Positions 31,499-60,717 of a stretch of DNA of 64,000 nt are shown here, one piece after another. Made by a program: the position numbers and the translations under genes. Numbering within the stretch: the first letter of the stretch is position 1; every line of letters begins with the position of its first letter. Location of the stretch: assembly GCA_002428735.1 (NCBI GenBank), contig DIXO01000020.1, positions 2,554 to 66,553 of the forward strand, given 5' to 3'. This DNA comes from Syntrophaceae bacterium UBA6078. GTDB taxonomy: Bacteria; Desulfobacterota; Syntrophia; Syntrophales; UBA2210. The notes beneath the pieces were generated by a model. The model was not told the origin of the DNA. It did not search any database and saw only the letters and a list, made by a program, of their open reading frames with translations.

Positions 31499-31592
31499 AC
31501 GCCATTCATGCAATGCCCGCCGATCAGCCGTTCCCCGAGACGCGCATGCCGCGCGTCCCTCCGGGAAGAGCGCCCGGCGGAGACACCGAATC

Positions 31593-35322: not shown

Positions 35323-35338
35323 TGGCACATTCTGTGCT
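35323..35338 (+). promoter_or_regulatory. sigma54-type promoter (TGGCAC-N5-GTGCT)
   Basis: TGGCACATTCTGTGCT has the GG-N10-GC spacing. It lies about 310 nt upstream of the 35647 ORF. Confidence 0.4.
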
Positions 35339-36201: not shown

Positions 36202-37443
36202 ATGAACCTGACAATTCCCGGCATATCTTTTCTTACGGCATCCATCCCGTTGAACTTCAACACGGACGGATACACGACACGCTTTGAACCGTCAAACTCA
36301 CGCCGGGTCGATGCCGATCATATCCTGGTCCTTCCCCATATCCAGGCACAGCAGAACCGCATGGCGGAAGTTTCCGCCATCTCCCTTTTCGATACGATCC
36401 CCATACCCGACGGCATGCCCCTCCCGGAGATCTATGACGGGACGCAGGACCTGCGCGGCGCACAGGTCCTGATCCTGATGCTGAACGGCTGGGGGGATAT
36501 GATCCTCATCCAGCCCGCCATACGCGCTCTTTACCGGATAGCGGCGTCCGCGGGGGCCCCGCCCAGGATCACGCTGGGGTGCAACTGGATCAGGAATTTT
36601 CCCTATCCCGGCGCGGCCTCTGTGGAACGGGTCATCCCCAATATTCTGACACTGGCGCAACTCTGTTCCTTTGATGTCATGGTCAATCTGCTGCCGATCA
36701 ATCACCAGAGGACTGCCACGCGCTCCATGTGCGATCTGTGCCTCGAAATCCTCCGTCTGGATCCGGAAGATGAGCACATCGATCCCCCCTCCATGCAACC
36801 CGATTCCCTGCGCGTATCGAAGATCCGTCCGGTCTTTGAGCGAATCCGTCGGACAACGGGGAAAAAACTTCTTTATGTCAACTGGCGGTCCCGGTTTCCT
36901 CATAAGAATGCTTCGGCAGCCCTGTTCGCCCGGGTCGCGGACCGATTGGGGGACACCCATCAGGCCCTTGTGCTGAAGGATGAGGCCGCAGCCGAAATCA
37001 TGGCGGGAGAGATCGACGCCCTGGGCGCGCCGATCATGAACCTCTCCCATCTGATCCATGATTACCACGACACGGTGGCGGCTCTGTCCCTGGTGGACGC
37101 TTTCATTTCGGTCGATACGGGGATCGTGCATGCCGCCGGAGCCATGGGGGTTCCCGGAGTGGCCCTCTTCGGGCCGTTCCCGCCGGAAACTCACGTCGCC
37201 GTCTATCCTTCCATTGTCCCGGTGAGGGCGAATTTCCGGGGAAAGAAGTGCCATGGCCCGTGTCTGGAGACGCACCGCGGGTGCGCCGAGGCAGGATATG
37301 CCCCCCACAGGGTAAGCCCCTGTTTCGAGGCGATTGATGCCGCTGATGTGATAGCTGCTTTCCGCACGGCCACGGGCCGCTCGGCGGGCGAACCCGAGAT
37401 TATGAGGCGAGGAAACGAGCGACGGCTCGCCATGCTGCCATAA
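36202..37443 (+). CDS. glycosyltransferase family 9 (heptosyltransferase-like), paralog 1
   Basis: LILMLNGWGDMILIQPAIRAL (GT9 N-terminal motif), ...SVDTGIVHAAGAMGVPGVALFGP and the C-x-PC-type Cys cluster (KKCHGPC...C). Confidence 0.75.
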   Translation: MNLTIPGISFLTASIPLNFNTDGYTTRFEPSNSRRVDADHILVLPHIQAQQNRMAEVSAISLFDTIPIPDGMPLPEIYDGTQDLRGAQVLILMLNGWGDMILIQPAIRALYRIAASAGAPPRITLGCNWIRNFPYPGAASVERVIPNILTLAQLCSFDVMVNLLPINHQRTATRSMCDLCLEILRLDPEDEHIDPPSMQPDSLRVSKIRPVFERIRRTTGKKLLYVNWRSRFPHKNASAALFARVADRLGDTHQALVLKDEAAAEIMAGEIDALGAPIMNLSHLIHDYHDTVAALSLVDAFISVDTGIVHAAGAMGVPGVALFGPFPPETHVAVYPSIVPVRANFRGKKCHGPCLETHRGCAEAGYAPHRVSPCFEAIDAADVIAAFRTATGRSAGEPEIMRRGNERRLAMLP

Positions 37444-37506
37444 GAAAGAATCGCAAACCGGTTGTTCCCTGCGAGGAGTGGCCGGAGCTTAAAGGATAGT
37501 GTCACG

Positions 37507-38748
37507 ATGGATCGTATCAGGAACAAAAAGATATTTCCTGCGGGCGCCGTGAATCGGGGGAGGATAGTCCGCGCCTTTCCGTTGAACAGCGAGGCCGAAC
37601 TGCAGCGGGGCGCAGCGTTGCACCAGGCAGGCCGGTTGCAGGAGGCCGAAGCCATCTATACGAGGATGCTGGAAATGAACCCGAATCACGCGGGCGGCCT
37701 GCACCTCCTGGGCGTGCTTTCCCTCCAGAGGGGGGAGTATGGACGCGCGGAGGATCTCATACAGCGGGCCATCCAGAGCGATCCCGACTGTCCCGTTTAT
37801 TTCAACAATCTCGGGGCCGCATTCAAGGCGCAGGGGAAATTCGGTGAAGCCATTTCCTGTTATCAACGGGCTGTTCAACTCGATCCCGCGTACGCCGAGG
37901 CGTATTACAACATGAGCAGCGTTTTCCACGATCAGGGGGCGTATGAAGAGGCTGTTTCATGCTGCCGGAAGGCCCTCCAAATTAACCCGGCGTATTTTCA
38001 GGCCCACTATAATATGGGGAATGCCCTCCAGGCTCAGGGGAGCTTCGATAAGGCAATTGCGTGTTATCAACGGGCCATTCGAATCGAGCCGTCACTGTTT
38101 CAGGCATACTACCATATGGGGAACGCCCACCGGGCACAGGGCAGGCTTGATGAGGCGGCCGCCTGCTACCGGAAGAGCGTCCGTTTGAATCCAGGCCTGT
38201 TCGAGGGGTACACCGATCTGGGCGCTGTGCTGAGAGAGAGGGGGCGGCTGGATGAGGCCCTCTCGTGCTACCGGAAGGCGGTGGATATGAAGCCGTATCA
38301 TGTCGAAGCGCTCTGCGGTATGGGGATGATTTACAGTGAGCACGGGGACGTCGAAGCTGCCCTTTCCTGTTATGAGAAGGCCCTGAAGATCGAGCCGGAA
38401 AACGCCGGGACGCACAACCTGATGGGGATCGCCTATGGGAAGGGGGGGGAATTTGATAAGGCCTTTTCCTGCTTCGAGAAAGCCCTCGATCTGCGGCCGG
38501 GGTATGCCGAGGCTGCCTGCAACATGGGAAACGCGTGCAGGGAGCGGGGCGACTTCGACGGGGCCCTGTTGTGTTACCGGCAGGCCCTGGACATACAGCC
38601 TGATTATTCAGAGGCGTACCGGAACTTGGAGATGGCGAATCAGCGTCGGGGGGAAGAGGAGGAGGAGGCGGCTTCCTGCCACCGGGAGGCCCGGGAGTTG
38701 ATGGTGGATATCCCCAATGGACACAAAAGGATAGGGAATATCTGTTGA
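37507..38748 (+). CDS. TPR repeat protein (about 10 tandem TPRs)
   Basis: A regular 34-aa repeat (A..Y.(R/K)A(L/V)...P....A..N(L/M)G.A....G....A). ATG 37507 is preferred over the track's TTG 37462. Confidence 0.8.
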   Translation: MDRIRNKKIFPAGAVNRGRIVRAFPLNSEAELQRGAALHQAGRLQEAEAIYTRMLEMNPNHAGGLHLLGVLSLQRGEYGRAEDLIQRAIQSDPDCPVYFNNLGAAFKAQGKFGEAISCYQRAVQLDPAYAEAYYNMSSVFHDQGAYEEAVSCCRKALQINPAYFQAHYNMGNALQAQGSFDKAIACYQRAIRIEPSLFQAYYHMGNAHRAQGRLDEAAACYRKSVRLNPGLFEGYTDLGAVLRERGRLDEALSCYRKAVDMKPYHVEALCGMGMIYSEHGDVEAALSCYEKALKIEPENAGTHNLMGIAYGKGGEFDKAFSCFEKALDLRPGYAEAACNMGNACRERGDFDGALLCYRQALDIQPDYSEAYRNLEMANQRRGEEEEEAASCHREARELMVDIPNGHKRIGNIC

Positions 38749-38869
38749 GAGCAGGGGAGGGTGAAGGGATACTTCCCGTCTCCTCGCTGAGAGCTGAGAG
38801 GTATTCGTTGCCCCTGAAAGGTTCATATATTTCGTCCGGGCGGCGGAGGAAAACGGAAAGAGGAATGAT

Positions 38870-39922
38870 ATGCGCATTCTGGTGGTGGGGGCCGTGCTGG
38901 GAGGAACCGTCCCGATCGGCGGTTCGATCTACAGGGCCTTTCAAGAGATAGGAATCGAGAGTGATTTTCTCGATTTTTCGGTGCTGGAAGGAGAGTTTCG
39001 GGATCTGTGGACGGCTCAGGACGAGGAACGGTCCTACCGGTTTCACATACAGAAGAAGATACTGCTTCTTGAGCGAATCACCTCCTTTCTTCCCGATGTA
39101 ATCCTCGGGATCGCTCAATCTCCGCTTGGTGATACCGCCATCCTCCCGGAGCTGAAGAAAGCGGGGATCACTCTGTGCTACTGGTTCACGGAGGATTACC
39201 GGATCTTTGAGTACTGGAAGACAATCGCGCCCTGGTTCGACCATTTTTTTACCATCCAGCAGGAGCCCTTCTGGCAGGAACTGAAGAGGGCAGGGTGTGA
39301 CAGCTACCACTATCTCCCCATGGCCTTCGATCCCGGACGGGACTGTCCGGGGGAATCGATCGGACCGGAGATCGCGGTCTCTTTTGTGGGAGCCCCCTAT
39401 CCAAACCGTGTCCACTTTCTGAGCCGCTTTCCCGGCAAACTGGAGATCTATGGCGAGGAATGGAACCGGTATCCCAATCCCTTTGTGGTGGTCGGCGATC
39501 GCAGGATTACCGAAGATGAAGCACGGCGTATATATCGTCGCTCACGGATCAACATCAATCTTCACTCCTCTCCGCTCCCCCGGGAGCTGGGAAAGGGGGA
39601 TTTCGTCAATCCACGGACCTTTGAACTGGCGGGGATGGGGTGTTTTCAACTGACTGATATGCGAAGGTTATTGACTCTTCATTTCGACCCGGCCCGGGAG
39701 GTGCTGGCCCTGTCCGGTTGGGAGGAGATGACGGAGGCCGCGGAGTATTTCCTTGGCCATGACAGGGAACGCGCCGAGATGGCCGAGAAGGCCCGGGCCC
39801 GTGTCTTTCGAGAACACACCTATCGGCACCGGGCGCAGGAGCTTGTCGCTCTCCTGCAAGAGGGGCGAAGGGGAAATTCATTCATACATACCGGTATGGC
39901 GGGAGGGATGCGTGAAAGGTAA
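38870..39922 (+). CDS. CgeB-family / DUF3880-type glycosyltransferase-like protein
   Basis: MRILVVG..., ...INLHSS...GDFVNPRTFELAGMGCFQLTD... is typical of CgeB-like spore-maturation/glycosyltransferase proteins. Confidence 0.6.
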   Translation: MRILVVGAVLGGTVPIGGSIYRAFQEIGIESDFLDFSVLEGEFRDLWTAQDEERSYRFHIQKKILLLERITSFLPDVILGIAQSPLGDTAILPELKKAGITLCYWFTEDYRIFEYWKTIAPWFDHFFTIQQEPFWQELKRAGCDSYHYLPMAFDPGRDCPGESIGPEIAVSFVGAPYPNRVHFLSRFPGKLEIYGEEWNRYPNPFVVVGDRRITEDEARRIYRRSRININLHSSPLPRELGKGDFVNPRTFELAGMGCFQLTDMRRLLTLHFDPAREVLALSGWEEMTEAAEYFLGHDRERAEMAEKARARVFREHTYRHRAQELVALLQEGRRGNSFIHTGMAGGMRER

Positions 39923-41564
39923 ATCCATCCTGATCATACACTTGAGCCGTCTTGGGGACACCATTCAAAGTCTCCCCGCCGTCAAACTGCTCAAAGAAGA
40001 CAATCTCGGATGCTCTATTACCTACGTCGGAATCAGGGATTTCTGCGTCCTCATCGAAGGAATTCCCTGGATCGACCGCCTGGTCACCATTCCCTGGCAG
40101 GAGGCCAGGGAGATCATGGGTGAAAAAAAGGAGGGACATACGGAGGTCCTTGACCGGTTCATTAAAAAGGTTCCCGAACTGGGCGAGGGGTATGACCTCT
40201 TGATCAATCTGACCCATGACTGGAGCAGCAGCTATCTTTCAGGAAAGATTGACGCGGCCGAAAAGAGGGGGAGGATTTTTTCGGAGCATAACGAGATCGT
40301 CGTATCGGGAAACTGGGGGAAGTATCTTTTTGCCGTCGCGAGAAACCGCCGGGACAACCTCCTCAATCTTGTCGATCTGTACATGGGGATGGCGGGCGTC
40401 CGGCACCGGCCGGTCATCGATTTCCTTCCCACCGATCCGCAGCGGGATCTGCTCTGCCGATCGCGGCTGAAAGAACTGGGTGCCGACACGGGCCGACTGA
40501 TCATCGGTTTCCACCTGGGGGCAAATATGGCTGCGAGAAGGTGGCCCATAGAGAACTTTGCGAAACTGGGGAAGGACCTTGTGGACAGACTCGATGCACG
40601 GATTGTTCTCTTCGGCTCCCCAGGCGAGCGGGGGCTGGCCGAGGCCTTCGGCCGGGTCGCGACTTTCCCCTTTATTGATCTTGCCGGCAGGACAACCCTT
40701 GCCGAGTTGCCCTCTTTCTTCAGGGGGATCGATCTTCTGGTCAGCAATGATACGGGTCCCATGCATATTGCGGCGGCGGTGGGCACGAAGGTGGCGGGGA
40801 TCTTCATGAGTGTGGCTTTTTTCGGTATCACGGGACCCTACGGTGACGGTCATATCGTCATCCAGTCCGCCTATCCCTGTTGTCCCTGTATTGATACGAC
40901 CGTGTGCGCCAACCCGCTCTGCAGGGAAGGGGTTACCCCCGAGACGGTCTTTCAGGGGGTGCGGGTTGGGGTATATCCGGACGGTACTGATGCTGTCTGC
41001 GATGCGGGAACTGTCCTGTATCGTTCCTCCTTCCGGGACGACGGAACCATGCGGTTTGAACCCATTGGCGGCGGGGGCGACCGCTTTCCACCGTGGCTGG
41101 CTTCATTCACCCACGCGAAGGCGACAATCGGCCAGACCCTCTGGAACCGGTGGCTGGATATGGGCGACTGCGCCACCCCTGTCGGGTGTACGGACGATAA
41201 AGAACAACAAGCCGACATCATTGCTGATTTTTGGAATGCCTGCCACTCCTATAAAGCGATATATGCCCGGGGAATCCATGCGTGCCGGAAGATCCTGACG
41301 GAATTCTCCAAAAGAAATCCGGACGGGGGATCGATACGAAAGCTTGCGGATCAACTGTCCCGGGGTGAAGAGGAGATCCGGGATCTTGAGGGCCCGCTCC
41401 CCATCCTGAAAGAGATTCATGAATTGTGCATGTCCGAGGCCGAGCTCTGCAATTTTCCGAAACTCGCCCGGGAGTTTCTGAAAACGTACGAAACCATGGC
41501 CGGCACCATCCGTTCCTTTGAAGAGACACTCCGGGAAATTACTCCCGCCCCTGCCCGTTCCTGA
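39912..41564 (+). CDS. glycosyltransferase family 9 (heptosyltransferase-like), paralog 2, with a ~200-aa C-terminal extension
   Basis: RBS GGGAGGG at 39901-39907 precedes an in-frame GTG at 39912 (VKGKSILIIHLSRLGDTIQSLPAVKLLKE). SNDTGPMHIAAAVGTKVAGIF and the C-PC Cys cluster are present. The track ORF start (39753) overlaps the upstream gene. Confidence 0.75.
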   Translation: MKGKSILIIHLSRLGDTIQSLPAVKLLKEDNLGCSITYVGIRDFCVLIEGIPWIDRLVTIPWQEAREIMGEKKEGHTEVLDRFIKKVPELGEGYDLLINLTHDWSSSYLSGKIDAAEKRGRIFSEHNEIVVSGNWGKYLFAVARNRRDNLLNLVDLYMGMAGVRHRPVIDFLPTDPQRDLLCRSRLKELGADTGRLIIGFHLGANMAARRWPIENFAKLGKDLVDRLDARIVLFGSPGERGLAEAFGRVATFPFIDLAGRTTLAELPSFFRGIDLLVSNDTGPMHIAAAVGTKVAGIFMSVAFFGITGPYGDGHIVIQSAYPCCPCIDTTVCANPLCREGVTPETVFQGVRVGVYPDGTDAVCDAGTVLYRSSFRDDGTMRFEPIGGGGDRFPPWLASFTHAKATIGQTLWNRWLDMGDCATPVGCTDDKEQQADIIADFWNACHSYKAIYARGIHACRKILTEFSKRNPDGGSIRKLADQLSRGEEEIRDLEGPLPILKEIHELCMSEAELCNFPKLAREFLKTYETMAGTIRSFEETLREITPAPARS

Positions 41565-41653
41565 CTGGAAAGAATTTCCCTCCAGCCATTTTCGATGGCG
41601 GGTGTATCCGGTTATCAGCTTGATTTCAATAAAAAATCAAGGGCCACGACTGA

Positions 41654-41669
41654 TGGCATGCTTGTTGCT
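41654..41669 (+). promoter_or_regulatory. sigma54 promoter (TGGCAT-N5-TTGCT) upstream of the pse operon
   Basis: TGGCATGCTTGTTGCT has exact GG-N10-GC spacing. It is followed by the inverted repeat TTAATCT-N7-AGATTAA (41680-41700). Confidence 0.6.
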
Positions 41670-41754
41670 AATTTTAAAGTTAATCTGAAAGTTAGATTAA
41701 AGTTTTCCCTGCTCAAAGCCGAAGAGAAGGCTGTCATGAAATAGATCGCAAAGG

Positions 41755-43122
41755 ATGAGGAACGATATGGAGACAACAAGGGAATACAAGATACAGGATG
41801 TGAGCGAGCGGTTGCACCTTCCGGCTTCCACCATTCGCTATTGGGAGGGGGAGTTCGGCGGATTTATAACAACAAAAAAAACCCGTGGAAAACAGAGGCG
41901 ATATACCGAACGCGCCATCGAACAACTCAGGCAGATCAGGGATCTGCTCCACGTGAAAAAGAAGAGCATTGCGGAGGCCCGGAAGCTTCTCAGGATCGGG
42001 AACGAGGATACGGGAAAAATCAACTGGGCAAAGCAAACCATTCTGTTGACCGGGGGGACCGGTTCCTTCGGCAAGCATTTCTGCACGGTCATGCTGGAGA
42101 AGTATCATCCGGAAGTCATTCGGGTTTACAGCCGCGATGAATTGAAACAGCATGAGATGCGCCAGGAATTTGGCGAGGACAGGATACGCTATTTTATCGG
42201 TGATGTGCGCGACGGCGACCGCCTGAAACGGGCCATGGAAGGGGTTGATATCGTGATTCACGCCGCGGCCCTCAAACAGGTGCCGGCATGCGAGTACAAT
42301 CCCCTTGAGGCGGTAAAGACAAATATCCTCGGCGCGAAGAATGTCATCGATGCGGCCATCAACACGGGGGCCAAGAAGGTCGTGGCCCTGAGCACCGACA
42401 AGGCGGCCAACCCCGCGAATCTGTACGGAGCCACCAAGCTGTGCGCCGAGAAAATCTTCGTTCACGGCAATTCCTATTCAGGTCCCCGGGGAACCCGGTT
42501 CAGTTGCGTGCGGTATGGGAATGTCATCGGAAGCCGCGGCAGTGTCATCCCCGTCTTCAGAGAACAGATGAAATCCGGCAAAATTACCATCACCGACGAA
42601 AAAATGACGCGCTTCTGGATCACCCTGGACCAGGCTGTCGATCTGGTTGTCTCGGCCCTCTGTCACATGCAGGGGGGGGAAATATTCGTTCCCAATATCC
42701 CCAGCATGAAGATAACCGATCTTGCCACGGCGATTGCCCCGGAATGCGAGGTACAAACGATCGGCATCAGACCGGGCGAAAAGCTGCACGAAACCCTCAT
42801 CACGGCGGAGGAAGGGAGAAACACGATTGCCTACAAAGGGATGTATGTCATCATGCCGGATCATTCATGGTGGAAGAGGCACAACTATGAAACGGGCCGG
42901 AAGGTTCCTGAAGGTTTTGTGTATTCAAGCAATCGGAACGATCACTGGCTCGATATCGAGGCCCTGAGAAAGATAACGCGGCCTTTGTCTTCGGGCAACG
43001 ATGAGGCCATTGCCAATTTTGCTTCCACCATTCACCGCTTAAGTGAGAACGTCATTCTGGATATGATCGGCGCGGAAGAGAACCTGCCTTCTCCGGAGAA
43101 GGCTTTCGAGGCTCGGATCTAA
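41755..43122 (+). CDS. pseB: MerR/excisionase-type HTH domain fused to UDP-GlcNAc 4,6-dehydratase (inverting) PseB
   Basis: Residues ~10-85, YKIQDVSERLHLPASTIRYWEGEFG...RYTERAIEQLRQIRDLL, form a MerR-type HTH. From QTILLTGGTGSFGKHF the protein is colinear with PseB/FlaA1 (SRDELKQ, YGATKLCAEK, RFWITL, GEIFVP). A ~45-aa C-terminal tail follows. Confidence 0.8.
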   Translation: MRNDMETTREYKIQDVSERLHLPASTIRYWEGEFGGFITTKKTRGKQRRYTERAIEQLRQIRDLLHVKKKSIAEARKLLRIGNEDTGKINWAKQTILLTGGTGSFGKHFCTVMLEKYHPEVIRVYSRDELKQHEMRQEFGEDRIRYFIGDVRDGDRLKRAMEGVDIVIHAAALKQVPACEYNPLEAVKTNILGAKNVIDAAINTGAKKVVALSTDKAANPANLYGATKLCAEKIFVHGNSYSGPRGTRFSCVRYGNVIGSRGSVIPVFREQMKSGKITITDEKMTRFWITLDQAVDLVVSALCHMQGGEIFVPNIPSMKITDLATAIAPECEVQTIGIRPGEKLHETLITAEEGRNTIAYKGMYVIMPDHSWWKRHNYETGRKVPEGFVYSSNRNDHWLDIEALRKITRPLSSGNDEAIANFASTIHRLSENVILDMIGAEENLPSPEKAFEARI

Positions 43123-43150
43123 GGGCGCGGCGGTGGAGAGAGGAGGTTTC

Positions 43151-44422
43151 ATGAGAATGTCGGCCCATAGGAAAATGATGCCTTACGGGCATCAATGTAT
43201 CGAGGAAGATGATATCGCCGCCGTTGTCGAGGTATTGAAATCAGACTGGCTGACGACGGGACCGCGGGTCAGAGAATTCGAGGAACAATTCGCGAGGCAT
43301 GTCGGTTCCGGTGAGGCGGTGGCCGTCTCCAGCGGAACAGCGGCGCTTCATGCGGCGATGCACGCTATCGGCATTGGTCCCGGCGATGAGGTCATTCTTC
43401 CGCCCATGACCTTCGCCGCGACAGCCAATGCCGTCGTATTCCAGGGGGGAACCCCCGTTTTCGTCGATGTGCGGCCGGACACGCTCCTCATTGATCCGGA
43501 AAAAATCACGGCACAGATTACGGACCGTACGAAGGCCATTCTATGCGTCGATTACGCCGGACAACCCTGCGATTACGACGCGCTGAGATCCATTGCAAAG
43601 AGAAAGGGATTGATCCTCGTGGCGGATTCCTGTCACGCCCTGGGAGCCCGGTACAAGGGGCGTCCGGTCGGCTCCCTTGCCGACTTGACGGTCTTCAGCT
43701 TTCATCCGGTAAAACATATCACCACAGGTGAAGGGGGCATGGTCACGACGGATATGCCCGTGGCTGCGGAGCGCATGCGCGCCTTTCGCAACCATGGGAT
43801 CACCACCGACCACAGCCAGCGGGAGAAACAGGGCTCCTGGTTCTACGAGATGGTGGACCTCGGCTATAACTACCGCCTCACCGAGCTTCAGTGCGCGCTG
43901 GGAATGAGCCAGTTGGGCAAGTCTTCCGCATGGCTGGAAAGACGGAGAGAGATTGCCGCGCGGTATGACGAGGCCTTCGCGCGCACTCCATCCGTCAAGC
44001 CCCTGCGGGTCAGTCAGGACGTATCGCACGCCTACCACCTCTATGTGGTCAGATTCGATCCCCGTGAATTGACGGCGGGGAGGGAAGAACTATTTACCGC
44101 CCTGCGCTCGGCGGGAATAGGCGTCAACGTCCATTACGTTCCGGTTCACCTGCATCCCTTCTACCGGGACCGGTTCGGAACGGGTCCCGGGCTGTGTCCC
44201 GTCGCCGAGGAGGCGTACGAAGAGATTATTTCACTGCCCATCTTCCCGGGGATGAGCGGACGGGATGTGGATAGTGTCGTCGAAGCGGTGCGGAACACGG
44301 TTGATACGTATGATCGCTTCCGCGTCAACAGGCGCAAAGGTCGCCGTTTTCATGAAACCGTGAATCCCGCATCGACTTCAACCTTCTCCTGCTGCAGGCA
44401 TACGGTGGGAAATGGGTACTGA
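43151..44422 (+). CDS. pseC: UDP-4-amino-4,6-dideoxy-N-acetyl-beta-L-altrosamine transaminase (DegT family)
   Basis: RBS AGGAGG at 43141-43146 precedes ATG 43151. MPYGHQCIEEDDI start and FSFHPVKHITTGEGG (PLP lysine). Confidence 0.8.
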   Translation: MRMSAHRKMMPYGHQCIEEDDIAAVVEVLKSDWLTTGPRVREFEEQFARHVGSGEAVAVSSGTAALHAAMHAIGIGPGDEVILPPMTFAATANAVVFQGGTPVFVDVRPDTLLIDPEKITAQITDRTKAILCVDYAGQPCDYDALRSIAKRKGLILVADSCHALGARYKGRPVGSLADLTVFSFHPVKHITTGEGGMVTTDMPVAAERMRAFRNHGITTDHSQREKQGSWFYEMVDLGYNYRLTELQCALGMSQLGKSSAWLERRREIAARYDEAFARTPSVKPLRVSQDVSHAYHLYVVRFDPRELTAGREELFTALRSAGIGVNVHYVPVHLHPFYRDRFGTGPGLCPVAEEAYEEIISLPIFPGMSGRDVDSVVEAVRNTVDTYDRFRVNRRKGRRFHETVNPASTSTFSCCRHTVGNGY

Positions 44423-44445
44423 CGTGGTCAGTAGTTTGGAAAAAG

Positions 44446-45579
44446 GTGAAAGGGTGTGTTTTTAAAGTGGGCGCTGTGATGGCGGGAAGACGGTTGGAAG
44501 ATAAAACGCTCGTAATCAGGGCGGACGCGAACCCGCTGATCGGGACGGGGCATGTCATGCGGTGTCTGGCGCTGGCCCAGACCTGGAAGGATGCGGGCGG
44601 GCGCGTGGTCTTCGGGACGGCGCCGGACTCTCGACCGCTGGAAGCACGGCTTCGCCGCAATGCGGTTGATGTCACATATCTTTCCGAGACACCCGGGAGC
44701 GTTGACGATGCATCGCGGACGGTTGCCCTTGCCATGCGCGAGCGGGCGGCATGGATTGTGGTGGATGGGTATCAGTTCGGCGATGAATATCAGAAGCTCA
44801 TCAAAGACGCGAGGCTGAAGATCCTTTTGATGGACGATTATGGCCATGCCGATCATTACTGGGCCGATCTGGTCTTGAATCAGAACATATACGCCCGGAG
44901 GGATCTGTATCCGAACAAAGAGGCATATACGCGCCTCCTCCTGGGGTCGCAATACGTGCTGTTGCGGCGGGAATTTTTGCGATGGTCCGGCTGGAAGCGG
45001 GAGATCAAGGAAAGGGCGTGTAATATATTGATCACCCTGGGCGGCTCCGATCCCGGCAATGGAACCCTGTCGGTTGTGAAGGCGCTGGACACGCTGGACA
45101 GCTTCGGCTGTGAAGTGAGAATCGTGACAGGACCGGCAAATCCCCATGCAGGAACGGTAGAAAAGGCAATTTCCCCGCGGAACATGCGTATCATGCAAAA
45201 CGTCGATGATATGCCTGCTTTGATGGCGTGGGCCGATATGGCTGTTTCGGCGGGCGGGAGCACCTGCTGGGAGATGTGCTTTATGGGGCTTCCTTTTTTA
45301 ACCGTCGTTCTCGCGGACAATCAGAAGGATATAGCGCGCGGCCTCGATGAGGAGGAACTCGCTGAAAATCTCGGGTGGCTCTCCGACCTGTCGGAAGACC
45401 GGATGGTGGAGCGGATATCCGATATGATCACCAACCGGGAAAAAAGGGAGAGATTCAGCGCCAGTGGGAGATTGCTGGTAGACGGACGGGGGGCTCTTCG
45501 AATCGTCCGGCATATTCTGGAGGGGCAGCCTTCGTTTCCCGTAAACGCGCGCCCTGCGGTGAGGGAGTGCATGCTCTAA
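44446..45579 (+). CDS. pseG: UDP-2,4-diacetamido-2,4,6-trideoxy-beta-L-altropyranose hydrolase
   Basis: LVIRADANPLIGTGHVMRCLALAQ is the PseG N-terminal signature, and ...ITLGGSDPGN... is also present. The start is GTG 44446 or ATG 44479. Confidence 0.75.
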   Translation: MKGCVFKVGAVMAGRRLEDKTLVIRADANPLIGTGHVMRCLALAQTWKDAGGRVVFGTAPDSRPLEARLRRNAVDVTYLSETPGSVDDASRTVALAMRERAAWIVVDGYQFGDEYQKLIKDARLKILLMDDYGHADHYWADLVLNQNIYARRDLYPNKEAYTRLLLGSQYVLLRREFLRWSGWKREIKERACNILITLGGSDPGNGTLSVVKALDTLDSFGCEVRIVTGPANPHAGTVEKAISPRNMRIMQNVDDMPALMAWADMAVSAGGSTCWEMCFMGLPFLTVVLADNQKDIARGLDEEELAENLGWLSDLSEDRMVERISDMITNREKRERFSASGRLLVDGRGALRIVRHILEGQPSFPVNARPAVRECML

Positions 45580-45600
45580 AAAATAGGATAAGAGGAAATT

Positions 45601-46908
45601 ATGTCGCATCTTGCCATCAATGGAGGAGAAAAAGTCAGGACACGACCCTTCCCCGCTTACAACATGATCGGGAAGGAAGAGGAAGAAGCGGTTGTGAAGG
45701 TCATGCGCTCCGGAATCCTCTCTCGATTTCTGGGGTCCTGGCATAGGGATTTTTACGGAGGACCCGCGGTGCAGGCCCTCGAAAGAGAATGGGCTGCATA
45801 CTATAACGTCAAACATGCCATCGCGGTCAATTCGGCCACCTCCGGGCTCTATTGTGCCGTCGGAGCCACGGGCGCCGGGCCGGGGGATGAGATCATCGTC
45901 TCTCCCTATACCATGAGCGCTTCGGCCACCGCCGCCCTGGTCTATAACGCGATTCCCGTTTTTGCGGATATTGAAGAGGATTATTTCTGTCTGGATCCTG
46001 ATTCCGTCGAGGAGAGAATCACGCCCCGGACGAAGGCCATCGTGGTGGTGGATATTTTCGGCCTTCCCTATGACGCCGAACGTATCAACTCGATTGCGGA
46101 AGACCACAACCTGACGGTTATTGAAGATGCCGCGCAGGCGCCGGGGGTGAAATCAAAAGGCAGATATGCGGGCACTCTTGGCCATATCGGGGTCTATTCC
46201 TTGAATTATCATAAACATATCCATTCAGGAGAGGGGGGAATCATCGTCACGGACGATGATGAACTGGCTGAGCGGATGCGCCTCATTCGGAACCATGCCG
46301 AAGCGGTTGTCGAACAGATGGGGCGGACCCATCTGGTGAATATGCTGGGTTTCAATTTCCGCATGACTGAAATTGAAGCCGCCATTGCCCGGGAACAGTT
46401 AAAAAAACTGGAGGGCATCATGGAAAACTGGCTGAACAATGTAACGTATCTGGAAGAAAAGCTGGCGGATATCCCCTGCCTCGTCATGCCCCGGGTCCGG
46501 CCGGGCTGTGAACATGCCTATTATGTGCACCCCGTCAAATTCCGAAGCGATGTGGCCGGCATATCCCGGGAGCGTTTTGTCGATGCCGTCAGGGCGGAGT
46601 TGCCACATTACGTGAACAGAGAAGGGGAGGGCGTCAAGATCGGCTGCGGGTATGTGCAGCCATTGTATCTCCAGCCCCTCTATCAGCAGAAAACAGTGTA
46701 CGGTGACAAGGGATTCCCCTTTGTCGCTCCTTTTTACCATGAAGAGGTGAGGTATGAGAAAGGAATCTGCCCGGTCTGTGAAAAGATGTATGACACACAG
46801 CTCATCACCCATGAATTGATGCGCCCCTCCCTGAGCGGCGATGATCTGGACGACGTGGCGTCGGCCTTTGCGAAGGTCTGGAAATACCGGGGAGAATTGA
46901 AAGGGTGA
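45601..46908 (+). CDS. second DegT/DnrJ/EryC1-family sugar aminotransferase
   Basis: 435 aa with AIAVNSATSGL, DEIIVSPYT and YSLNYHKHIHSGEGG (PLP lysine). Confidence 0.75.
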   Translation: MSHLAINGGEKVRTRPFPAYNMIGKEEEEAVVKVMRSGILSRFLGSWHRDFYGGPAVQALEREWAAYYNVKHAIAVNSATSGLYCAVGATGAGPGDEIIVSPYTMSASATAALVYNAIPVFADIEEDYFCLDPDSVEERITPRTKAIVVVDIFGLPYDAERINSIAEDHNLTVIEDAAQAPGVKSKGRYAGTLGHIGVYSLNYHKHIHSGEGGIIVTDDDELAERMRLIRNHAEAVVEQMGRTHLVNMLGFNFRMTEIEAAIAREQLKKLEGIMENWLNNVTYLEEKLADIPCLVMPRVRPGCEHAYYVHPVKFRSDVAGISRERFVDAVRAELPHYVNREGEGVKIGCGYVQPLYLQPLYQQKTVYGDKGFPFVAPFYHEEVRYEKGICPVCEKMYDTQLITHELMRPSLSGDDLDDVASAFAKVWKYRGELKG

Positions 46909-46911
46909 ATC

Positions 46912-47643
46912 ATGACGGCAATGGGGAGAAGGCGGATCGGAACAGGCAAGCACGGCGGTACATCTTCTGATAGGGAGGACGGTGGCGGCGCCCGGCCACC
47001 TTGCCTATCGATCACCGTTCTCTCCGATAAAGAAAGCTGGATCAATGCGTACCTGCCGGACCTCGTGTCATCCCTGACACGAATGGGGCATGCCGTTGTC
47101 TGGAGACACAACCTTTCCCATGTCAGGAAGGGCGACATCGCCTTCTATCTGGGATGCGGACAGATCATTGCTCCCCCTGTCCTGGCGAGAAACAGGCACA
47201 ATCTTGTTGTCCATGAGAGCGACCTGCCTCACGGGAAAGGGTGGTCCCCCCTGACATGGCAGATTCTCGATGGAAAGAACGAAATTCCCGTAACCCTGTT
47301 TGAGGCGGAAGAACGGGTGGACAGCGGAAGAATCTATCTCAGGGATGTGATGCGTTTTGACGGCACGGAACTGGTAGAAGACCTGAGAAAGAAACAGGCT
47401 GCATACACCATCAGGATGTGCCTCTCCTTTGTTCGAGGGTACCCGGGGATTGTCTCAAAGGGAAGGGATCAGTCGGGAAGAGCGTCGTATTACAGGAAGC
47501 GCGCACCGGAGGATTCGAGACTTGATCCGGACAAGACGATCCGGGAACAGTTCAATCTGTTGCGTGTGGTGGATAATGAACGCTATCCGGCCTATTTCGA
47601 ACTGGATGGTCTGCGGTACACGCTTACCATACAGAGAGGGTAA
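46912..47643 (+). CDS. formyltransferase-family protein
   Basis: NLVVHESDLPHGKGWSPLTWQILDG matches the H-x-S-L-L-P-x-x-(R/K)-G formyl_trans_N core. The first ~30 residues are low-complexity, so the start is uncertain. Confidence 0.6.
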   Translation: MTAMGRRRIGTGKHGGTSSDREDGGGARPPCLSITVLSDKESWINAYLPDLVSSLTRMGHAVVWRHNLSHVRKGDIAFYLGCGQIIAPPVLARNRHNLVVHESDLPHGKGWSPLTWQILDGKNEIPVTLFEAEERVDSGRIYLRDVMRFDGTELVEDLRKKQAAYTIRMCLSFVRGYPGIVSKGRDQSGRASYYRKRAPEDSRLDPDKTIREQFNLLRVVDNERYPAYFELDGLRYTLTIQRG

Positions 47644-47647
47644 GGAA

Positions 47648-48712
47648 ATGGACCCGTTTATTGAAATGAACGGTCGTCGAATCGGGGTGGGCTGCCCCGC
47701 CTACATCGTTGCGGAAATGTCGGCCAACCATCATCAGGATTTTGATGAGGCGGTGAAAATCATTGAAGCCGCCAAGAGGGCCGGCGCGGATGCCGTGAAA
47801 CTGCAAACCTTCACCCCGGACACCCATACCATTCAGTCGGACAAGGAATATTTCCGCGTCGGCGGGGGAACGCTGTGGGATGGGAAGACGCTGTATGATC
47901 TGTATCGCGGGGCATACATGCCCTGGGAATGGCAGCCCAGGCTGAAAGAGATTGCCAATGGCCGGGGATTGGATCTTTTTTCCGCCGCCGTGGACGGTAC
48001 GGGGGTGGATTTTCTGGAGGAAATGGGTGTCCCCGTTCACAAGGTCACATCCTTTGAAATAACGGACCTGCCCCTCATTGAAAAAATGGGAAGGACCGGG
48101 AAACCGGTCATTATTTCAACCGGCATGGCTGAACTTTCGGAAATTGACGAAGCGGTCCGGGCGGCCCGCACGGCGGGTGCCCGTCAGATCGCCCTTCTCA
48201 AATGCAACAGCGCCTACCCTGCCCCGCCGGAAGAGATGAACCTGCGTACCATCCCGCACCTGGCGGAGGCCTTCGGAGTGCCGGTCGGGATCTCCGATCA
48301 CACCATGGATATCGCCGTGCCGGTAGCCGCCGTGTCACTCGGAGCCTGCATCGTGGAAAAGCACTTTACCCTGTCCCGGAATATCCCGGGCCCGGACAGC
48401 ACCTTCTCTCTTGAGCCTCACGAATTCAAGGCCATGGTCGAGGCGGTACGCACGGCCGAGAAGGCCCTGGGGACGGTGCATTACGGGGTCAGTGAGATTG
48501 AGGCACGGAGCCGCATCTTTCGCAGATCGTTGTTCGCGGTAAGGGATATAAAGGCCGGAGAGCGCTTTACGGACGGAAACATCCGGTCCATACGGCCGGG
48601 TCACGGATTGCCGGTTCGTCATGTCGGGGAGATCATCGGGCGCTATGCCAGCCGCGATATCGAGAGAGGGACGCCTCTCGCATGGGACCTCATAGGCGGG
48701 GGGGGTACATAG
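47648..48712 (+). CDS. pseI: pseudaminic acid synthase
   Basis: Start at ATG 47648. GCPAYIVAEMSANHHQDFDEAVKIIEAAKRAGADAVKLQTF and a C-terminal SAF domain (RSLFAVRDIKAGERFT). Confidence 0.85.
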   Translation: MDPFIEMNGRRIGVGCPAYIVAEMSANHHQDFDEAVKIIEAAKRAGADAVKLQTFTPDTHTIQSDKEYFRVGGGTLWDGKTLYDLYRGAYMPWEWQPRLKEIANGRGLDLFSAAVDGTGVDFLEEMGVPVHKVTSFEITDLPLIEKMGRTGKPVIISTGMAELSEIDEAVRAARTAGARQIALLKCNSAYPAPPEEMNLRTIPHLAEAFGVPVGISDHTMDIAVPVAAVSLGACIVEKHFTLSRNIPGPDSTFSLEPHEFKAMVEAVRTAEKALGTVHYGVSEIEARSRIFRRSLFAVRDIKAGERFTDGNIRSIRPGHGLPVRHVGEIIGRYASRDIERGTPLAWDLIGGGGT

Positions 48713-48715
48713 ACT

Positions 48716-49711
48716 ATGACGACTGTACTGATAACCGGGGCCGGCGGAGCGGCAATTCCCGGACTTATCAACCGGTTGCGAAGCGATGGGTACCGGGTTC
48801 TGGCCGCGGATATGGATCGACATGCCGTCGGGCTTTTTCTCGCGGACGCCGGGTTAATCATACCCCCCGGAGGGGCGCCCGGCTTTGTGCCGGCCCTTCG
48901 TCGGATCTGTCATGAGGAGAACGTTGAAGTCGTCGTACCCCTTGTGGATGAAGAATTGGCGCCTGTCTGGGAGCTTGCCGGTGACGGCGTGCACATCATG
49001 TTGCCCAGACGAGAATTTATCTCCCTTTGCCTGGATAAATACGCACTCGCGAAGCGATTAGCCGTATGCGATATCAGGGCACCCCACACCAGACTTGCGA
49101 GCGAAGGTGTTGGCGCCGCGATGCGGTTTCCCCTGGTGGTGAAACCGCGGACGGGCAGAGGCAGCCGCGGGGTAGAACTGCTGGACTCGAACGAGGCATT
49201 ACGGTCGTATCTCGGCGGCAGTCCCTATGGGGAGGATAAACTGATTCTCCAGGAATATATCAGTGGCCCCGAGTTTACGGTCTCCGTTGTCGCCTGGCGG
49301 GACGGGGAGGTGCAGGCGGTTGTTCCCAAAGAGGTCATCAGCAAACGGGGGATAACCCGCCTGGCCGTTACCAGGCGGAACGACAGGATCGATCGGCTGT
49401 GCAGAGACATACAGTCCCGTCTGCGCGCGGACGGTCCCTTTAATGTGCAGTTGCGAATCGATGAGAAGAGCGGAGAGCCGGTTCCTTTTGAGATCAATCC
49501 GCGATTCTCGACGACCGTTTCGCTGACCATTGCGGCGGGCATCGATGAACTGGGAGGGCTTATCAGGCAGGCGGTGAGCGGAAGCAATTCCTGTCGCTTT
49601 GATCAATGGCGCGAAGGTGTTGTTCTGATCCGTCAGACCCTTGATGAATTTGTCGCCGAATCTGATTTTAACGCCCGCAACGATCACATACGGGGAGTGC
49701 AACGGCAATGA
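48716..49711 (+). CDS. ATP-grasp domain enzyme
   Basis: VLITGAGGAA... pre-ATP-grasp, ...FPLVVKPRTGRGSRGV..., LILQEYISGPEFTV and FEINPRFS. Confidence 0.7.
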   Translation: MTTVLITGAGGAAIPGLINRLRSDGYRVLAADMDRHAVGLFLADAGLIIPPGGAPGFVPALRRICHEENVEVVVPLVDEELAPVWELAGDGVHIMLPRREFISLCLDKYALAKRLAVCDIRAPHTRLASEGVGAAMRFPLVVKPRTGRGSRGVELLDSNEALRSYLGGSPYGEDKLILQEYISGPEFTVSVVAWRDGEVQAVVPKEVISKRGITRLAVTRRNDRIDRLCRDIQSRLRADGPFNVQLRIDEKSGEPVPFEINPRFSTTVSLTIAAGIDELGGLIRQAVSGSNSCRFDQWREGVVLIRQTLDEFVAESDFNARNDHIRGVQRQ

Positions 49712-50661
49712 TTCTTGTCACGGGTGCGGGCGGTTTTCTGGGACGTCATCTTGTTGCCCATTCGCTGGCTGCGGGGGCGGATGTGGTGCCGCTGTATCGA
49801 AGCGTGAAAATGAAGATCGAGAAACAGAGATGGGAAGCCGACCTGACAAATCCACAGCACATGCAGGGACTGAAAGAATATGTCCAGACCCCGCATACGA
49901 TTGTTCATCTTGCCGGTCGTATCGAGATTTCTCTCGTGCCGAATCCCCTGTCTGTCTCCCTGCCCCCTGTGGCCGGGTCGGAAGATATTTCATCCATCTA
50001 TTCGGCGAACGTCACTTCGACGGCACATCTCCTCCAGTATTGTCTTCAGAAGGGAGTGAAGCATCTTATATTCGCCTCTTCGCAGACGGTTTACGGCATG
50101 CCGGCCTGTGAGGTGATTACCGAAGAGACACGCTGTGAACCGCTCGAACATTATGCGGCCAGCAAACTGTGCGCAGAGCACCTGCTGGAAATCGGCGCGC
50201 GTCAGGGCCTCACCGTCACGGTGCTCCGGTTCCCCGGTCTGTACGGGGGAGATCGAAGGGAAGGGGTTGTGTATGGATTTTGCAGATCCGCTTTGGAGCG
50301 GAGGAGCATCGAGGTGAAAACGGACATTCCTCTGCCCATTGATGTCATCCATGTCAGTGATGTGGTGGACGCCATTGAAAAGGCGATATCTCTTAAGGGG
50401 CATGAGTGGCATTGCCTGAATATTGCCACCGGTGAAGCATGCAGCCTGCATATACTCGCGGATTCCATTGCGGGGCTTGTTCCGGGATGCACGGCGCATG
50501 TGTCCGGCGTACCGCAGCCGATAGTGAGGATGGATTCTTCAAAGGCGCGTTCCGTCCTGGGGTGGCGGGCTGTGTCTCGTCGCGAAAGGCTCTCAGCAAT
50601 GATAAAAAATGTAGAAAACGAGTTCAGAGCACCTGAACACAAGGAGGCATGGCATGCCTGA
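49708..50661 (+). CDS. NAD-dependent epimerase/dehydratase (extended SDR)
   Basis: ILVTGAGGFLGRHL (GxxGxxG) and YAASKLCAE (YxxxK). Confidence 0.75.
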   Translation: MILVTGAGGFLGRHLVAHSLAAGADVVPLYRSVKMKIEKQRWEADLTNPQHMQGLKEYVQTPHTIVHLAGRIEISLVPNPLSVSLPPVAGSEDISSIYSANVTSTAHLLQYCLQKGVKHLIFASSQTVYGMPACEVITEETRCEPLEHYAASKLCAEHLLEIGARQGLTVTVLRFPGLYGGDRREGVVYGFCRSALERRSIEVKTDIPLPIDVIHVSDVVDAIEKAISLKGHEWHCLNIATGEACSLHILADSIAGLVPGCTAHVSGVPQPIVRMDSSKARSVLGWRAVSRRERLSAMIKNVENEFRAPEHKEAWHA

Positions 50662-51385
50662 AAAAATAATAGAAAAGTTTCAACGCAGTGACAAGATGTA
50701 CTTATCAAAACGCCGTGATCTGGCGGAGAAACTGGAAATTCCCGAGCTCTGGAAAATTATCGACCACTTCGGCCTTTACACGGGGGTACAGACCCTCGGC
50801 CACAGCCTTGCCGTCTTTGAAATAATGAAGCGGTGCATCACCATTCCCGGGCATCTGGTCGAGTTCGGCTGCTGGAACGGGGCCAACCTGATGTTTATGG
50901 CAAAGGTGCTCCAACTGCTTCAACCCAATACCTATAAACATGTTTATGGATTCGACAGTTTTGAAGGGCTCCAGACATTTGCGGCAGAGGATGGAAATAG
51001 TCGGGGCTCTTCCGGCAAATACAGAGGCAACGAGGCGGTTCTGAGAGCCATCATTGATTTTTTTGATATGGATGAATGGGTCCATATCGTTAAAGGAAAC
51101 GCACTGGAAACCATCCCGCAGTTTGAAAAAGACAATCCCCATATCCTGTTTTCTCTCGCGTATATAGACTTTGATCTCTACGAGCCGTGCAGGGTCGCGC
51201 TCGAATACGCGGCGCAGCGGATGGCCCCCGGTGGAATCATCGTTTTTGACGAGGCGCTGACGCATTTATGGCCCGGAGAGGGGCAGGTCCTTGTGGAGTT
51301 TCTTGCTGAAAAGGGGGCCGGTGAATATGCCATGCATACTGTTCCCTTTGCGCGTCAGCCGACGGCATATCTCGTAAAGAAATGA
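50654..51385 (+). CDS. TylF/MycF-like class I SAM-dependent methyltransferase
   Basis: HLVEFGCWNGANLMFM, YGFDSFEGL and LAYIDFDLYEPCRVAL...GGIIVFDE. Confidence 0.65.
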   Translation: MPEKIIEKFQRSDKMYLSKRRDLAEKLEIPELWKIIDHFGLYTGVQTLGHSLAVFEIMKRCITIPGHLVEFGCWNGANLMFMAKVLQLLQPNTYKHVYGFDSFEGLQTFAAEDGNSRGSSGKYRGNEAVLRAIIDFFDMDEWVHIVKGNALETIPQFEKDNPHILFSLAYIDFDLYEPCRVALEYAAQRMAPGGIIVFDEALTHLWPGEGQVLVEFLAEKGAGEYAMHTVPFARQPTAYLVKK

Positions 51386-60666: not shown

Positions 60667-60717
60667 GGGGAAGGCATCCTGCCTCGTCGCTTCTGAAACG
60701 CGTATCCGGGGAAACAG

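Follow-up and report, generated by a model that had tools for sequence, protein, structure and literature searches.

The DNA considered here is a stretch of 64,000 nucleotides (nt) from Syntrophaceae bacterium UBA6078 (assembly GCA_002428735.1, contig DIXO01000020.1, positions 2,554 to 66,553 of the forward strand), referred to below as the window. Its subject is merR-pseB, a gene at the head of a pseudaminic acid (Pse) operon in which a MerR-type helix-turn-helix (HTH) is fused in frame to the committed Pse enzyme PseB, together with the promoter region in front of it. An initial annotation of the window had pointed out this fusion and had proposed an enzyme-regulator that controls its own operon through an inverted repeat at a sigma54 promoter. 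Here we present the features of the gene and its product, their conservation in related proteins (P numbers) and loci (L numbers), and a proposal for how a PseB of this kind may act on its own promoter, together with the alternatives. Coordinates of the features are collected in Table 1.

Gene and protein features

The reading frame at 41755-43122 (+) is uninterrupted and comprises 455 amino acids (aa). The ATG at 41767 is preferred as the start because a ribosome-binding site lies 5 nt in front of it, because the ATG at 41755 is missing in the closest homologue (L012), and because the database protein (P0001) has 451 aa. Residues 11-80 of the product match the Pfam family MerR_1 (PF13411) with 58.6 bits against a cutoff of 21.6, and the model PF00376 gives 27.7 bits on the same domain against a cutoff of 28.2. 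In the AlphaFold2 (AF2) model the domain is built of helices at 9-16 and 20-29, a strand at 44-46 and helices at 48-63 and 68-77, that is, in the alpha1-alpha2-wing-alpha3-alpha4 order of a MerR winged HTH, with predicted local distance difference test (pLDDT) values of 80-89. The long alpha5 coiled coil and the C-terminal effector region of MerR proteins are missing; helix alpha4 is followed only by GN.D.GK, a linker of about 7 residues (GNEDTGK), and then by strand beta1 of PseB.

Residues 92-407 match the NCBIfam model for PseB (TIGR03589) with 500.3 bits against a curated cutoff of 407.75, over model positions 3-323 of 324, as expected of a full member of this equivalog family. The enzyme part aligns end to end with FlaA1 of H. 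pylori (2gn4; E 2.6e-112, 55% identity), the catalytic stretch STDKAANP.NLYGATK being identical in both, and carries the PseB hallmarks, namely the Rossmann motif TGGTGSFG and the catalytic D-K ... Y-x-x-x-K. Comparison of the AF2 model with 2gn4 in Foldseek gave a TM-score of 0.85; no solved structure covering both the HTH and the PseB domain was found in the structure comparison. Judged from its sequence, the product is a catalytically intact PseB joined to a MerR-type HTH in one polypeptide. This agrees with the initial annotation, according to which the HTH continues into PseB with no intervening stop and no ATG precedes the Rossmann motif; the frame is indeed open, both domains score above their cutoffs, and past the start there is no further in-frame ATG until that motif.

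Conservation of the fusion

A survey of homologues for N-terminal HTH extensions, as suggested in the initial annotation, was carried out in a collection of 5.8 billion proteins, of which the best 120 clusters were examined. PF13411 and PF02719 occurred together in all 120, with identities of 66-94% and lengths of mostly 435-484 aa. The clusters were drawn from NCBI, JGI, ENA and Logan assemblies and, where the source was named, belonged to metagenome-assembled genomes (MAGs) of Deltaproteobacteria/Thermodesulfobacteriota (Syntrophales, Syntrophaceae, Desulfatiglandales, Desulfobacterales), uncultured relatives of sulfate reducers; cluster look-ups returned MAG-derived members only and no cultured strain. 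The fusion is thus not rare, with at least 120 protein clusters in public data, and the single-polypeptide fusion to the committed Pse enzyme is kept across many lineages. The clusters are annotated as plain PseB or UDP-N-acetylglucosamine 4,6-dehydratase, although at least 120 of them bear a predicted DNA-binding domain, which amounts to a gap in annotation.

In an alignment of 30 fused homologues the invariant residues of the HTH were S13, P19, S21, T22, R24, W26, E27, F30, G41, R44, R45 and Y46. Nine of them occupy DNA-contact positions, five in the recognition helix (S21, T22, R24, W26, E27) and four in the wing (G41, R44, R45, Y46). These contact residues and the short linker are unchanged in an N-domain whose overall identity is no more than about 40-60%. 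The junction (G78, I85, W87, Q90) and the catalytic residues (D211, K212, Y220, K224) are likewise invariant. The junction is conserved as protein (GN.D.GKI.W..Q), and no conserved internal start codon occurs in it in this alignment; the sole GTG before the Rossmann motif (Val in HVKKK) stands at a variable alignment position. With no conserved start codon and a junction that is maintained as protein sequence, an internal start yielding a separate PseB was ruled out.

The product ends in a tail of about 45 aa, which extends past the end of FlaA1 and of the PseB model, is conserved in 30 of the 30 aligned fusions and is modelled at low confidence (pLDDT of about 46-51). Three relatives without the HTH are described below; the tail is kept in one of them (P0280, recently unfused) and absent from the other two (P0288, P0289). 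Its helix motif STIHRLNEKVILNMLNSEE.IPE is found in all main-clade fusions, is truncated or absent in the pseudoenzyme clade, also described below, and does not occur in classical PseB. Possible roles of this helix are packing against the HTH and contacts within the oligomer.

Searches with the N-terminal part gave few relatives outside the fused family. When representative proteins were searched with the N-domain, the nearest short matches were truncated fusions, and the true stand-alone relatives were small HspR/CarH-like MerR proteins, below every curated cutoff; no orthologous characterised regulator was found in this search or among the curated models. A scan of genome contigs with the N-terminal protein sequence returned one irrelevant gammaproteobacterial locus. 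A word-index search with a 105-aa N-terminal piece returned seven short fragments and is not usable for counting fusions.

Promoter region

The sigma54 promoter box named in the initial annotation stands at the stated position (41654-41669) and is conserved. Sought as GG-N10-GC in a TGGCAC/TTGCW context, it is present in the window and in L002, L003, L005, L007-L010 and L012, with a matching box in 9 of the 10 fused loci fetched by protein search; the three unfused lineages have it too (L120, L121, L124). Directly after the -12 element follows a conserved module, tAAAGTTaAtCTgAAAGTTaAATTaAAGTTT, which in the window contains three tandem AAAGTT repeats. These begin at the predicted sigma54 transcription start (about 41679) and are spaced 12 and 11 bp apart (AAAGTT-N6-AAAGTT-N5-AAAGTT); such a triple direct repeat matches once in the window, against 0.01 matches expected. 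When 26 non-identical orthologous promoters were aligned, the AAAGTT cores were the positions of highest information. Repeats 1 and 2 are kept in L009 without repeat 3 and the sigma28 -10 element, and the repeats are kept in L042 and L055 though the sigma54 box is broken there. By this pattern of retention, repeats 1 and 2 behave as an independent module.

The third repeat is also part of a sigma28 (FliA)-type promoter. The sequence CCGAA stands exactly 12 nt beyond the third core, a distance that is fixed in the aligned fused promoters. The lineage references for sigma28 promoters (L005:3090, L009:380, L010:7088 and window:62891) have the consensus TAAAGTTT-N12-GCCGATA, and the geometry of the site in front of merR-pseB matches that of flgM in L005, L009 and L010 and of the flagellin gene in the window (TAAAGTTT-N12-KCCGATA), with a -10 element that deviates at two positions. 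Since the third core and CCGAA match this lineage consensus, the operon would have tandem sigma54 and sigma28-type promoters. No extra AAAGTT repeats were found at the flgM and flagellin sigma28 promoters of the same loci and the window.

Further upstream, most fused loci contain a palindrome, GGMAA-N3/4-TTKCC, at a fixed distance from the -24 element (about -85 to -90). The unfused locus L120 still has a near-copy, TGAAAGATTTCC, which precedes its sigma54 box by 85 nt; the palindrome is thus independent of the HTH, and it was rejected as the HTH site for this reason. To judge from its sequence and position it is probably the enhancer of a sigma54 activator. No activator for it was identified, and the pattern was not found at other sigma54-like boxes in the same loci. 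The AAAGTT repeats themselves were judged unlikely to be a sigma54 enhancer, because this distinct palindrome occupies the enhancer distance.

Between 41450 and 41850 no sigma70-like promoter was detected, including the long-spacer type required for classical MerR activation. The classical arrangement, a palindromic operator within a sigma70 promoter with a 19-20 bp spacer, is thus absent, and the promoters are of the sigma54 and sigma28 types. The promoter region gave no match to an Rfam family. The promoter as first described therefore stands with respect to its sigma54 box and is incomplete with respect to the upstream palindrome and the overlapping sigma28-type promoter.

Two further sigma54-like boxes were noted in the window. 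One (TGGCACgtataTTGCG, 56223-56238) lies just upstream of a gene for a family 2 glycosyltransferase (GT2)-TPR protein (56304-58748) in the glycosylation island, the other (TGGCACattctGTGCT, 35323-35338) upstream of the open reading frame at 35647 and the cluster of family 9 glycosyltransferase (GT9) genes. Neither has AAAGTT repeats.

Co-occurrence of the repeats and the HTH

A scan of all metagenome contigs with the repeat pattern gave 107 matches, of which 80 loci were examined. About 20 of the 80 have a sigma54 and/or CCGAA context, with the fused gene 140-380 nt downstream wherever the sequence reaches that far (three are cut off after the HTH and one before the gene); the PseB identity of the genes behind these complete elements is 57-96%. 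The remaining loci were AT-rich chance matches, and no complete element ahead of an unfused PseB was seen among the 80 of 107 loci. A profile hidden Markov model (HMM) of the element gave one match per fused locus, at this promoter only, and no match in the unfused loci. With the same profile, no second significant element, and so no wider regulon, was found in the window or in 12 loci (207 kb). In L008 (435-470) a second sigma54 box, TGGCATACAAGTTGCT, is directly followed by AAAGTTAACGCCAAAGTC, ahead of a glycosyltransferase/DegT cluster that precedes pseB; the site (L008:452) is not significant in the profile search and is a weak candidate for a second, weaker operator.

Unfused controls were obtained by a search with the enzyme domain alone. 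Three lineages of unfused PseB were recovered (P0280, 364 aa; P0288, 333 aa; P0289, 338 aa), which are 76-78% identical to the PseB domain of the window and thus within the range of most fused homologues; the other seemingly HTH-less matches were N-terminally truncated fusions. Their loci (L120, L121-123 and L124-126) are pse operons beside genes for FlgM, flagellin or FlaG. A good sigma54 box is present in 3 of the 3 lineages and the repeats in none. Among the loci that were not selected by the element, the repeats accompany 9 of 9 fused promoters and are present in 0 of the 3 unfused lineages (Fisher exact p = 1/220). The most instructive case is P0280, from which the HTH and the repeats have both gone, whereas its C-terminal tail and the near-copy of the palindrome further upstream have stayed. 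The unfused proteins are placed inside the fused clade by a neighbour-joining tree, which suggests that the unfused lineages are secondary losses of the HTH.

A branch with degenerate catalytic motifs

A divergent clade of fused proteins (P0122; L068, 2734-3999 (+); L032, 3765-2536 (-) and 2199-1201 (-)) is 57-59% identical and has kept the HTH signature and the full promoter element. Its catalytic motifs are degenerate, a condition confined to this clade: STDK has become SSDM in P0122 and L068 (K133 to M, FlaA1 numbering) and YGATK has become YGATA in L032 (K145 to A). Erosion extends to further conserved blocks, and the scores fall under the PseB cutoff. In CapE the equivalent Lys-to-Ala and Lys-to-Glu mutants are completely inactive (PMC3699295). 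In L032 the gene heads a legionaminic-acid-type operon, being followed by LegB (TIGR04180, 496 bits versus a cutoff of 475) and a CBS-nucleotidyltransferase (PtmE-like), not by PseC; that in L068 is followed by a TPR-GT2 gene. On this sequence evidence the L032-type protein has probably become a pseudoenzyme that regulates a pathway of the legionaminic-acid type. That the HTH and the repeats were kept after catalysis was lost argues that DNA binding is the selected function in this branch and, by extension, a real function of the active fusions.

Proposed mechanism

The comparative evidence favours a regulatory, probably autoregulatory, role of the fusion, as the initial annotation had supposed, although the operator that it named was the wrong one and its promoter lacked two elements. 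On balance we favour the reading that the protein is a trigger enzyme, an active PseB whose MerR-type HTH would let the oligomer regulate its own flagellin-glycosylation operon. From what was observed, namely a conserved architecture and a cis-element that occurs together with the HTH, we infer DNA binding, repression rather than activation, a ligand and a stoichiometry, in steps that are ordered here by falling support.

In the first step the HTH would contact DNA. In the second, its operator would consist of the two to three tandem AAAGTT repeats at 41676-41704, one helical turn apart. In the third, several HTHs of one PseB oligomer would occupy the repeats on one DNA face, as in CarH, and this occupancy would occlude the sigma54 and sigma28 RNA polymerase holoenzymes. 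PseB-type enzymes (FlaA1, CapE) form stable hexamers, organised as trimers of dimers (PMC3699295), and it is this, together with the CarH precedent, on which the proposed multiple occupancy is based. Negative autoregulation is proposed because the repeats span the sigma54 start and the sigma28 -35 element, so that binding would block both holoenzymes. In the fourth step a ligand of the enzyme domain would probably tune occupancy, either CMP-pseudaminic acid (CMP-Pse) as co-repressor or UDP-N-acetylglucosamine (UDP-GlcNAc) as inducer, with the outcome that synthesis of the glycan donor would be matched to flagellin production. UDP-sugar occupancy as the signal, which was suggested in the initial annotation, is pure conjecture, and CMP-Pse, cited as a natural inhibitor of PseB (McNally et al. 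2008, in PMC5378307), is at least as good a candidate.

Several points weigh against this proposal. Classical MerR proteins bind palindromes as coiled-coil dimers. The hexamer has 2-fold and 3-fold symmetry, and with a linker of about 7 residues it would not obviously present its HTHs in tandem; the AF2 monomer model is moderate (pLDDT 72.8 overall, below 55 in the linker and the tail). A different factor, acquired together with the fusion, might be what binds the repeats. The repeat pattern itself served to find about two-thirds of the aligned promoters, and the conservation of repeat 3 is already accounted for by its being the sigma28 -35 element. The co-occurrence rests on three unfused lineages and is partly confounded by phylogeny, and the neighbour-joining tree has no support values. 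Finally, the fused gene in L011 is not the first of its operon and has no element in the 1.8 kb up to the contig end.

A wider version of the proposal is doubtful at present: that these proteins form a new family of nonulosonic-acid-sensing transcription factors, in which a hexameric dehydratase, gated by CMP-Pse or UDP-GlcNAc, acts through its N-terminal HTHs on AAAGTT repeats at a dual sigma54/sigma28 promoter, in the manner of CarH, so that the supply of flagellin glycan would be tied to the flagellar transcription hierarchy, and catalytically dead descendants have become dedicated regulators for legionaminic-acid-type operons.

Alternative explanations

The alternative that survives best, although it is unlikely, is that the fusion binds DNA elsewhere and that AAAGTT belongs to sigma28 (as alternative -35 registers), to a flagellar regulator or to a nucleoid protein. 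The site of the HTH would then be the GGAAA-N3-TTTCC palindrome 87 nt upstream, or distant flagellar promoters. Repeat 3 is identical to the lineage sigma28 -35 element, members of the MerR family are usually found on palindromes, and a conserved palindrome does exist at a fixed upstream position; L008, moreover, has a second sigma54 box followed by AAAGTTAACGCCAAAGTC ahead of glycosyltransferase genes. The canonical sigma28 promoters of flgM and flagellin, however, are without extra repeats, and repeats 1 and 2 outlive the sigma28 part in L009. The repeats are gone in 3 of the 3 unfused lineages, whereas L120 has kept the palindrome, and loci with a broken sigma54 box lack it; the palindrome thus tracks sigma54 and not the HTH. 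No second significant element was found in the 207 kb searched.

It is quite improbable that the N-domain has no role on DNA and serves oligomer assembly, binding of a flagellar or glycosylation partner, or localisation, with the repeats unrelated to it. Some small MerR-like proteins do work by protein contacts, GlnR and TnrA, the closest solved relatives, are controlled through contact with glutamine synthetase, and contacts within the protein or with a partner are hinted at by the conserved helix at the C-terminus. Against this, the invariant residues are the canonical recognition-helix and wing set (R24, R44, R45, Y46), the pseudoenzyme clade loses catalysis and keeps the HTH, and the repeats co-vary with the presence of the HTH.

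Little can be said for the operator of the initial annotation, TTAATCT-N7-AGATTAA, as the target of a MerR-type dimer at the sigma54 start site, comparable to the 7-N7-7 HAIR site of HspR; we give it slightly less credit still. The repeat is present in the window and perfect there, though not beyond chance when taken alone, since perfect inverted repeats of the 7-N7-7 form number 14 in the window, and 126 if any spacer from 0 to 15 is allowed. The N-domain weakly matches HspR models, but at 32 bits it is far under the cutoff of 105 (NF047375). Pairing at the same positions of the 26 aligned promoters ranges from 1 to 7 of 7 (median 5); it is perfect only in the window, reaches 6 of 7 in the nearest relatives (L012, L058, L083, L026), and falls to 1-3 of 7 in ten promoters, while the AAAGTT cores stay invariant. 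Compensatory changes were not seen in any of the 26. For want of conservation and of such changes the inverted repeat was rejected both as an operator and as an RNA hairpin in the sigma54 leader; the conserved element is the set of tandem direct repeats, of which the inverted repeat is, on the alignment, a by-product.

An artefact, in which a sequencing or assembly error joined two neighbouring genes or an internal start gives plain PseB only, has nothing in its favour but the general prior that single-sequence fusions can be artefacts, and can be dismissed given the same in-frame architecture in assemblies of independent origin (NCBI, JGI, ENA and Logan; at least 120 clusters) and a junction that is conserved as protein without a conserved internal start codon.

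Comparison with known systems

In a profile search the nearest solved relatives of the N-domain were GlnR/TnrA (7tea, 2e-8; 4r4e, 4r22), MerR and CarH (5c8d, 2.4e-6). The NCBIfam model for CarH matches the HTH alone, with 26 bits where its cutoff is 400, and the fusion has no Pfam match to a B12-binding domain. CarH is the closest working analogue and the best mechanistic precedent for the trigger-enzyme proposal. Its operator is made up of three or four direct repeats of 11 bp, arranged in tandem on a single face of the DNA, and one repeat contains the -35 element (PMC9304148). CarH/LitR, which are B12-dependent photoreceptor repressors, and the fusion share an N-terminal MerR-type HTH without a coiled coil and a C-terminal module that oligomerises and senses (in the fusion, as proposed); a matching pattern of tandem repeats over a -35 element lies in front of merR-pseB as a candidate operator, spaced 12 and 11 bp with the third repeat as the sigma28 -35. 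They differ in the sensor, a B12-binding domain in CarH and a complete nucleotide-sugar dehydratase with the short-chain dehydrogenase/reductase (SDR) fold in the fusion, in the repeat sequence (TnnACA versus AAAGTT) and in the sigma factors (sigma70 versus sigma54 and sigma28).

The GlnR and TnrA proteins of Bacillus are minimal, enzyme-linked MerR-type HTHs, whose DNA binding is governed by glutamine synthetase reporting product feedback inhibition. There, enzyme and HTH are separate and the operators palindromic, whereas the fusion is one polypeptide with direct repeats in front of its gene. BirA, PutA and NadR are single polypeptides that combine a pathway enzyme with the repressor of its own pathway, the ligand state controlling DNA binding; they have other folds, DNA-binding domains and pathways, none in nucleotide-sugar metabolism or flagellin glycosylation and none with a MerR-type HTH. 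Rex has an N-terminal winged helix and a C-terminal Rossmann-fold NADH sensor that gates DNA binding, but its Rossmann domain is not an enzyme and its HTH is not MerR-type, and it showed no sequence similarity in any search here. Described PseB proteins resemble the enzyme domain of the fusion, which is a full TIGR03589 member with its catalytic D-K...Y...K intact and stands in a pse operon context; they have about 330 aa and neither the HTH nor the C-terminal helix, and for them inhibition by CMP-Pse at the protein level is known, but transcriptional regulation by the enzyme is not.

Full-text literature searches returned no description of the MerR-PseB architecture, in line with the initial annotation, which knew of no described PseB with such a fusion. 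Bifunctional enzyme-repressors, and MerR HTHs with non-canonical sensors, are already known, so that MerR-PseB is not a new category; it is an uncharacterised, widespread family with a sharply defined candidate operator. It bears on the transcriptional control of the pse pathway, which is poorly understood, and brings with it a built-in evolutionary series. How the supply of activated sugar donor is matched to flagellin synthesis is largely unknown, only the allosteric inhibition of PseB by CMP-Pse having been described; if PseB is also a transcription factor, glycan metabolism would be linked directly to the sigma54/sigma28 flagellar cascade. A nucleotide-sugar enzyme would then join the short list of trigger enzymes, and a second MerR-type architecture, after CarH, would read tandem direct repeats. 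The series from enzyme to enzyme with HTH to dead enzyme with HTH would be a compact natural example of the evolution of a ligand-sensing regulator from a metabolic enzyme.

Operon and genomic context

The context is that of a PseB, with PseC, PseG, NeuB/PseI, PseF and Maf encoded in the same operon or island. PseC and further Pse genes come directly or soon after the fused gene in every locus recovered by protein search, and except in L011 the fused gene heads the pse operon; in the window, too, it stands at the head of its operon behind a conserved sigma54 promoter. Neighbouring genes encode FlgM, FlgN, FlgK, FlgL, CsrA, FliW, chemotaxis proteins or glycosyltransferases of glycosylation islands. 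In L005 and L009, genes for CsrA and FliW adjoin flagellin-type genes. The flagellin gene of the window has a long 5' leader of about 160 nt.

Table 1. Features of the merR-pseB locus and the adjoining pse operon and flagellin genes in the window.
Feature	Coordinates	Strand	Remarks
Palindrome GGAAAGAATTTCC, candidate sigma54-activator enhancer (upstream activating sequence)	41567-41579	.	87 nt upstream of the sigma54 box
Sigma54 -24/-12 box TGGCATgcttgTTGCT	41654-41669	+	GG-N10-GC, 9/11 consensus positions
Three tandem AAAGTT repeats, candidate operator of the MerR domain	41676-41704	+	41676-41681, 41688-41693, 41699-41704
Inverted repeat TTAATCT-N7-AGATTAA	41680-41700	.	Lies within the direct repeats
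Sigma28 (FliA)-type promoter TAAAGTTT-N12-GCCGAAGA	41698-41725	+	-35 element is repeat 3
merR-pseB fusion gene	41767-43122	+	451 aa from the preferred ATG; alternative ATG 41755; ribosome-binding site GAGGA 41757-41761
MerR-type winged HTH, without coiled coil or effector domain	41785-41994	+	PF13411, E 6.6e-16
PseB enzyme domain	42028-42975	+	TIGR03589, 500 bits vs 408
C-terminal tail	42976-43119	+	Helix motif STIHRLNEKVILNMLNSEE.IPE; past the end of FlaA1 and the PseB model
Rest of operon, PseC to PseF and further genes	43133-55660	+	Pfam/NCBIfam matches
PseC	43133-44422	+	468 bits vs 423
PseG	44446-45579	+	227 bits vs 154
Second DegT aminotransferase, formyltransferase	within 43133-55660	+	After PseG
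PseI/NeuB	47429-48712	+	Operon member
ATP-grasp, epimerase and methyltransferase genes	within 43133-55660	+	Operon members, after PseI/NeuB
PseF (CTP_transf_3)	54944-55660	+	Operon member
Maf-type flagellin glycosyltransferase genes	58753-61344	+	Pfam MptE-like and Maf_flag10_N
Flagellin gene	62891-64000	+	Start 63087, runs off the window; sigma28 promoter 62891-62918, TAAAGTTT-N12-TCCGATAA

The pse operon is flanked (36202-41564 and 61358-62893) by several genes of the GT9 (heptosyltransferase) family, by one for a Glyco_trans_1_2/DUF3880 protein and by one for a large TPR protein. L008 and L012 have this set ahead of the fused gene as well, and it is unusual beside a flagellin-glycosylation island that bears Maf.

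The genes for a tripartite ATP-independent periplasmic (TRAP) transporter, DctP, DctQ and DctM (21351-24783), are followed by a signalling cluster (28105-34214), in which an HDOD-HD protein (28105-29370) is encoded next to two hybrid histidine kinases that have PAS/GAF and receiver domains (29360-31498 (+) and 31593-34214 (-)). Genes for HDOD proteins are also found beside the fused gene in L002, L003, L007 and L009. The region 4636-18590 is a probable mobile island; it carries a type I restriction-modification system (HsdR 4636-7674, HsdS 8672-10099, HsdM 11225-13276), in which hsdR and hsdS are separated by the insertion of a RhuM/Fic-domain gene (7671-8675), as well as a phage-type integrase (17421-18590).

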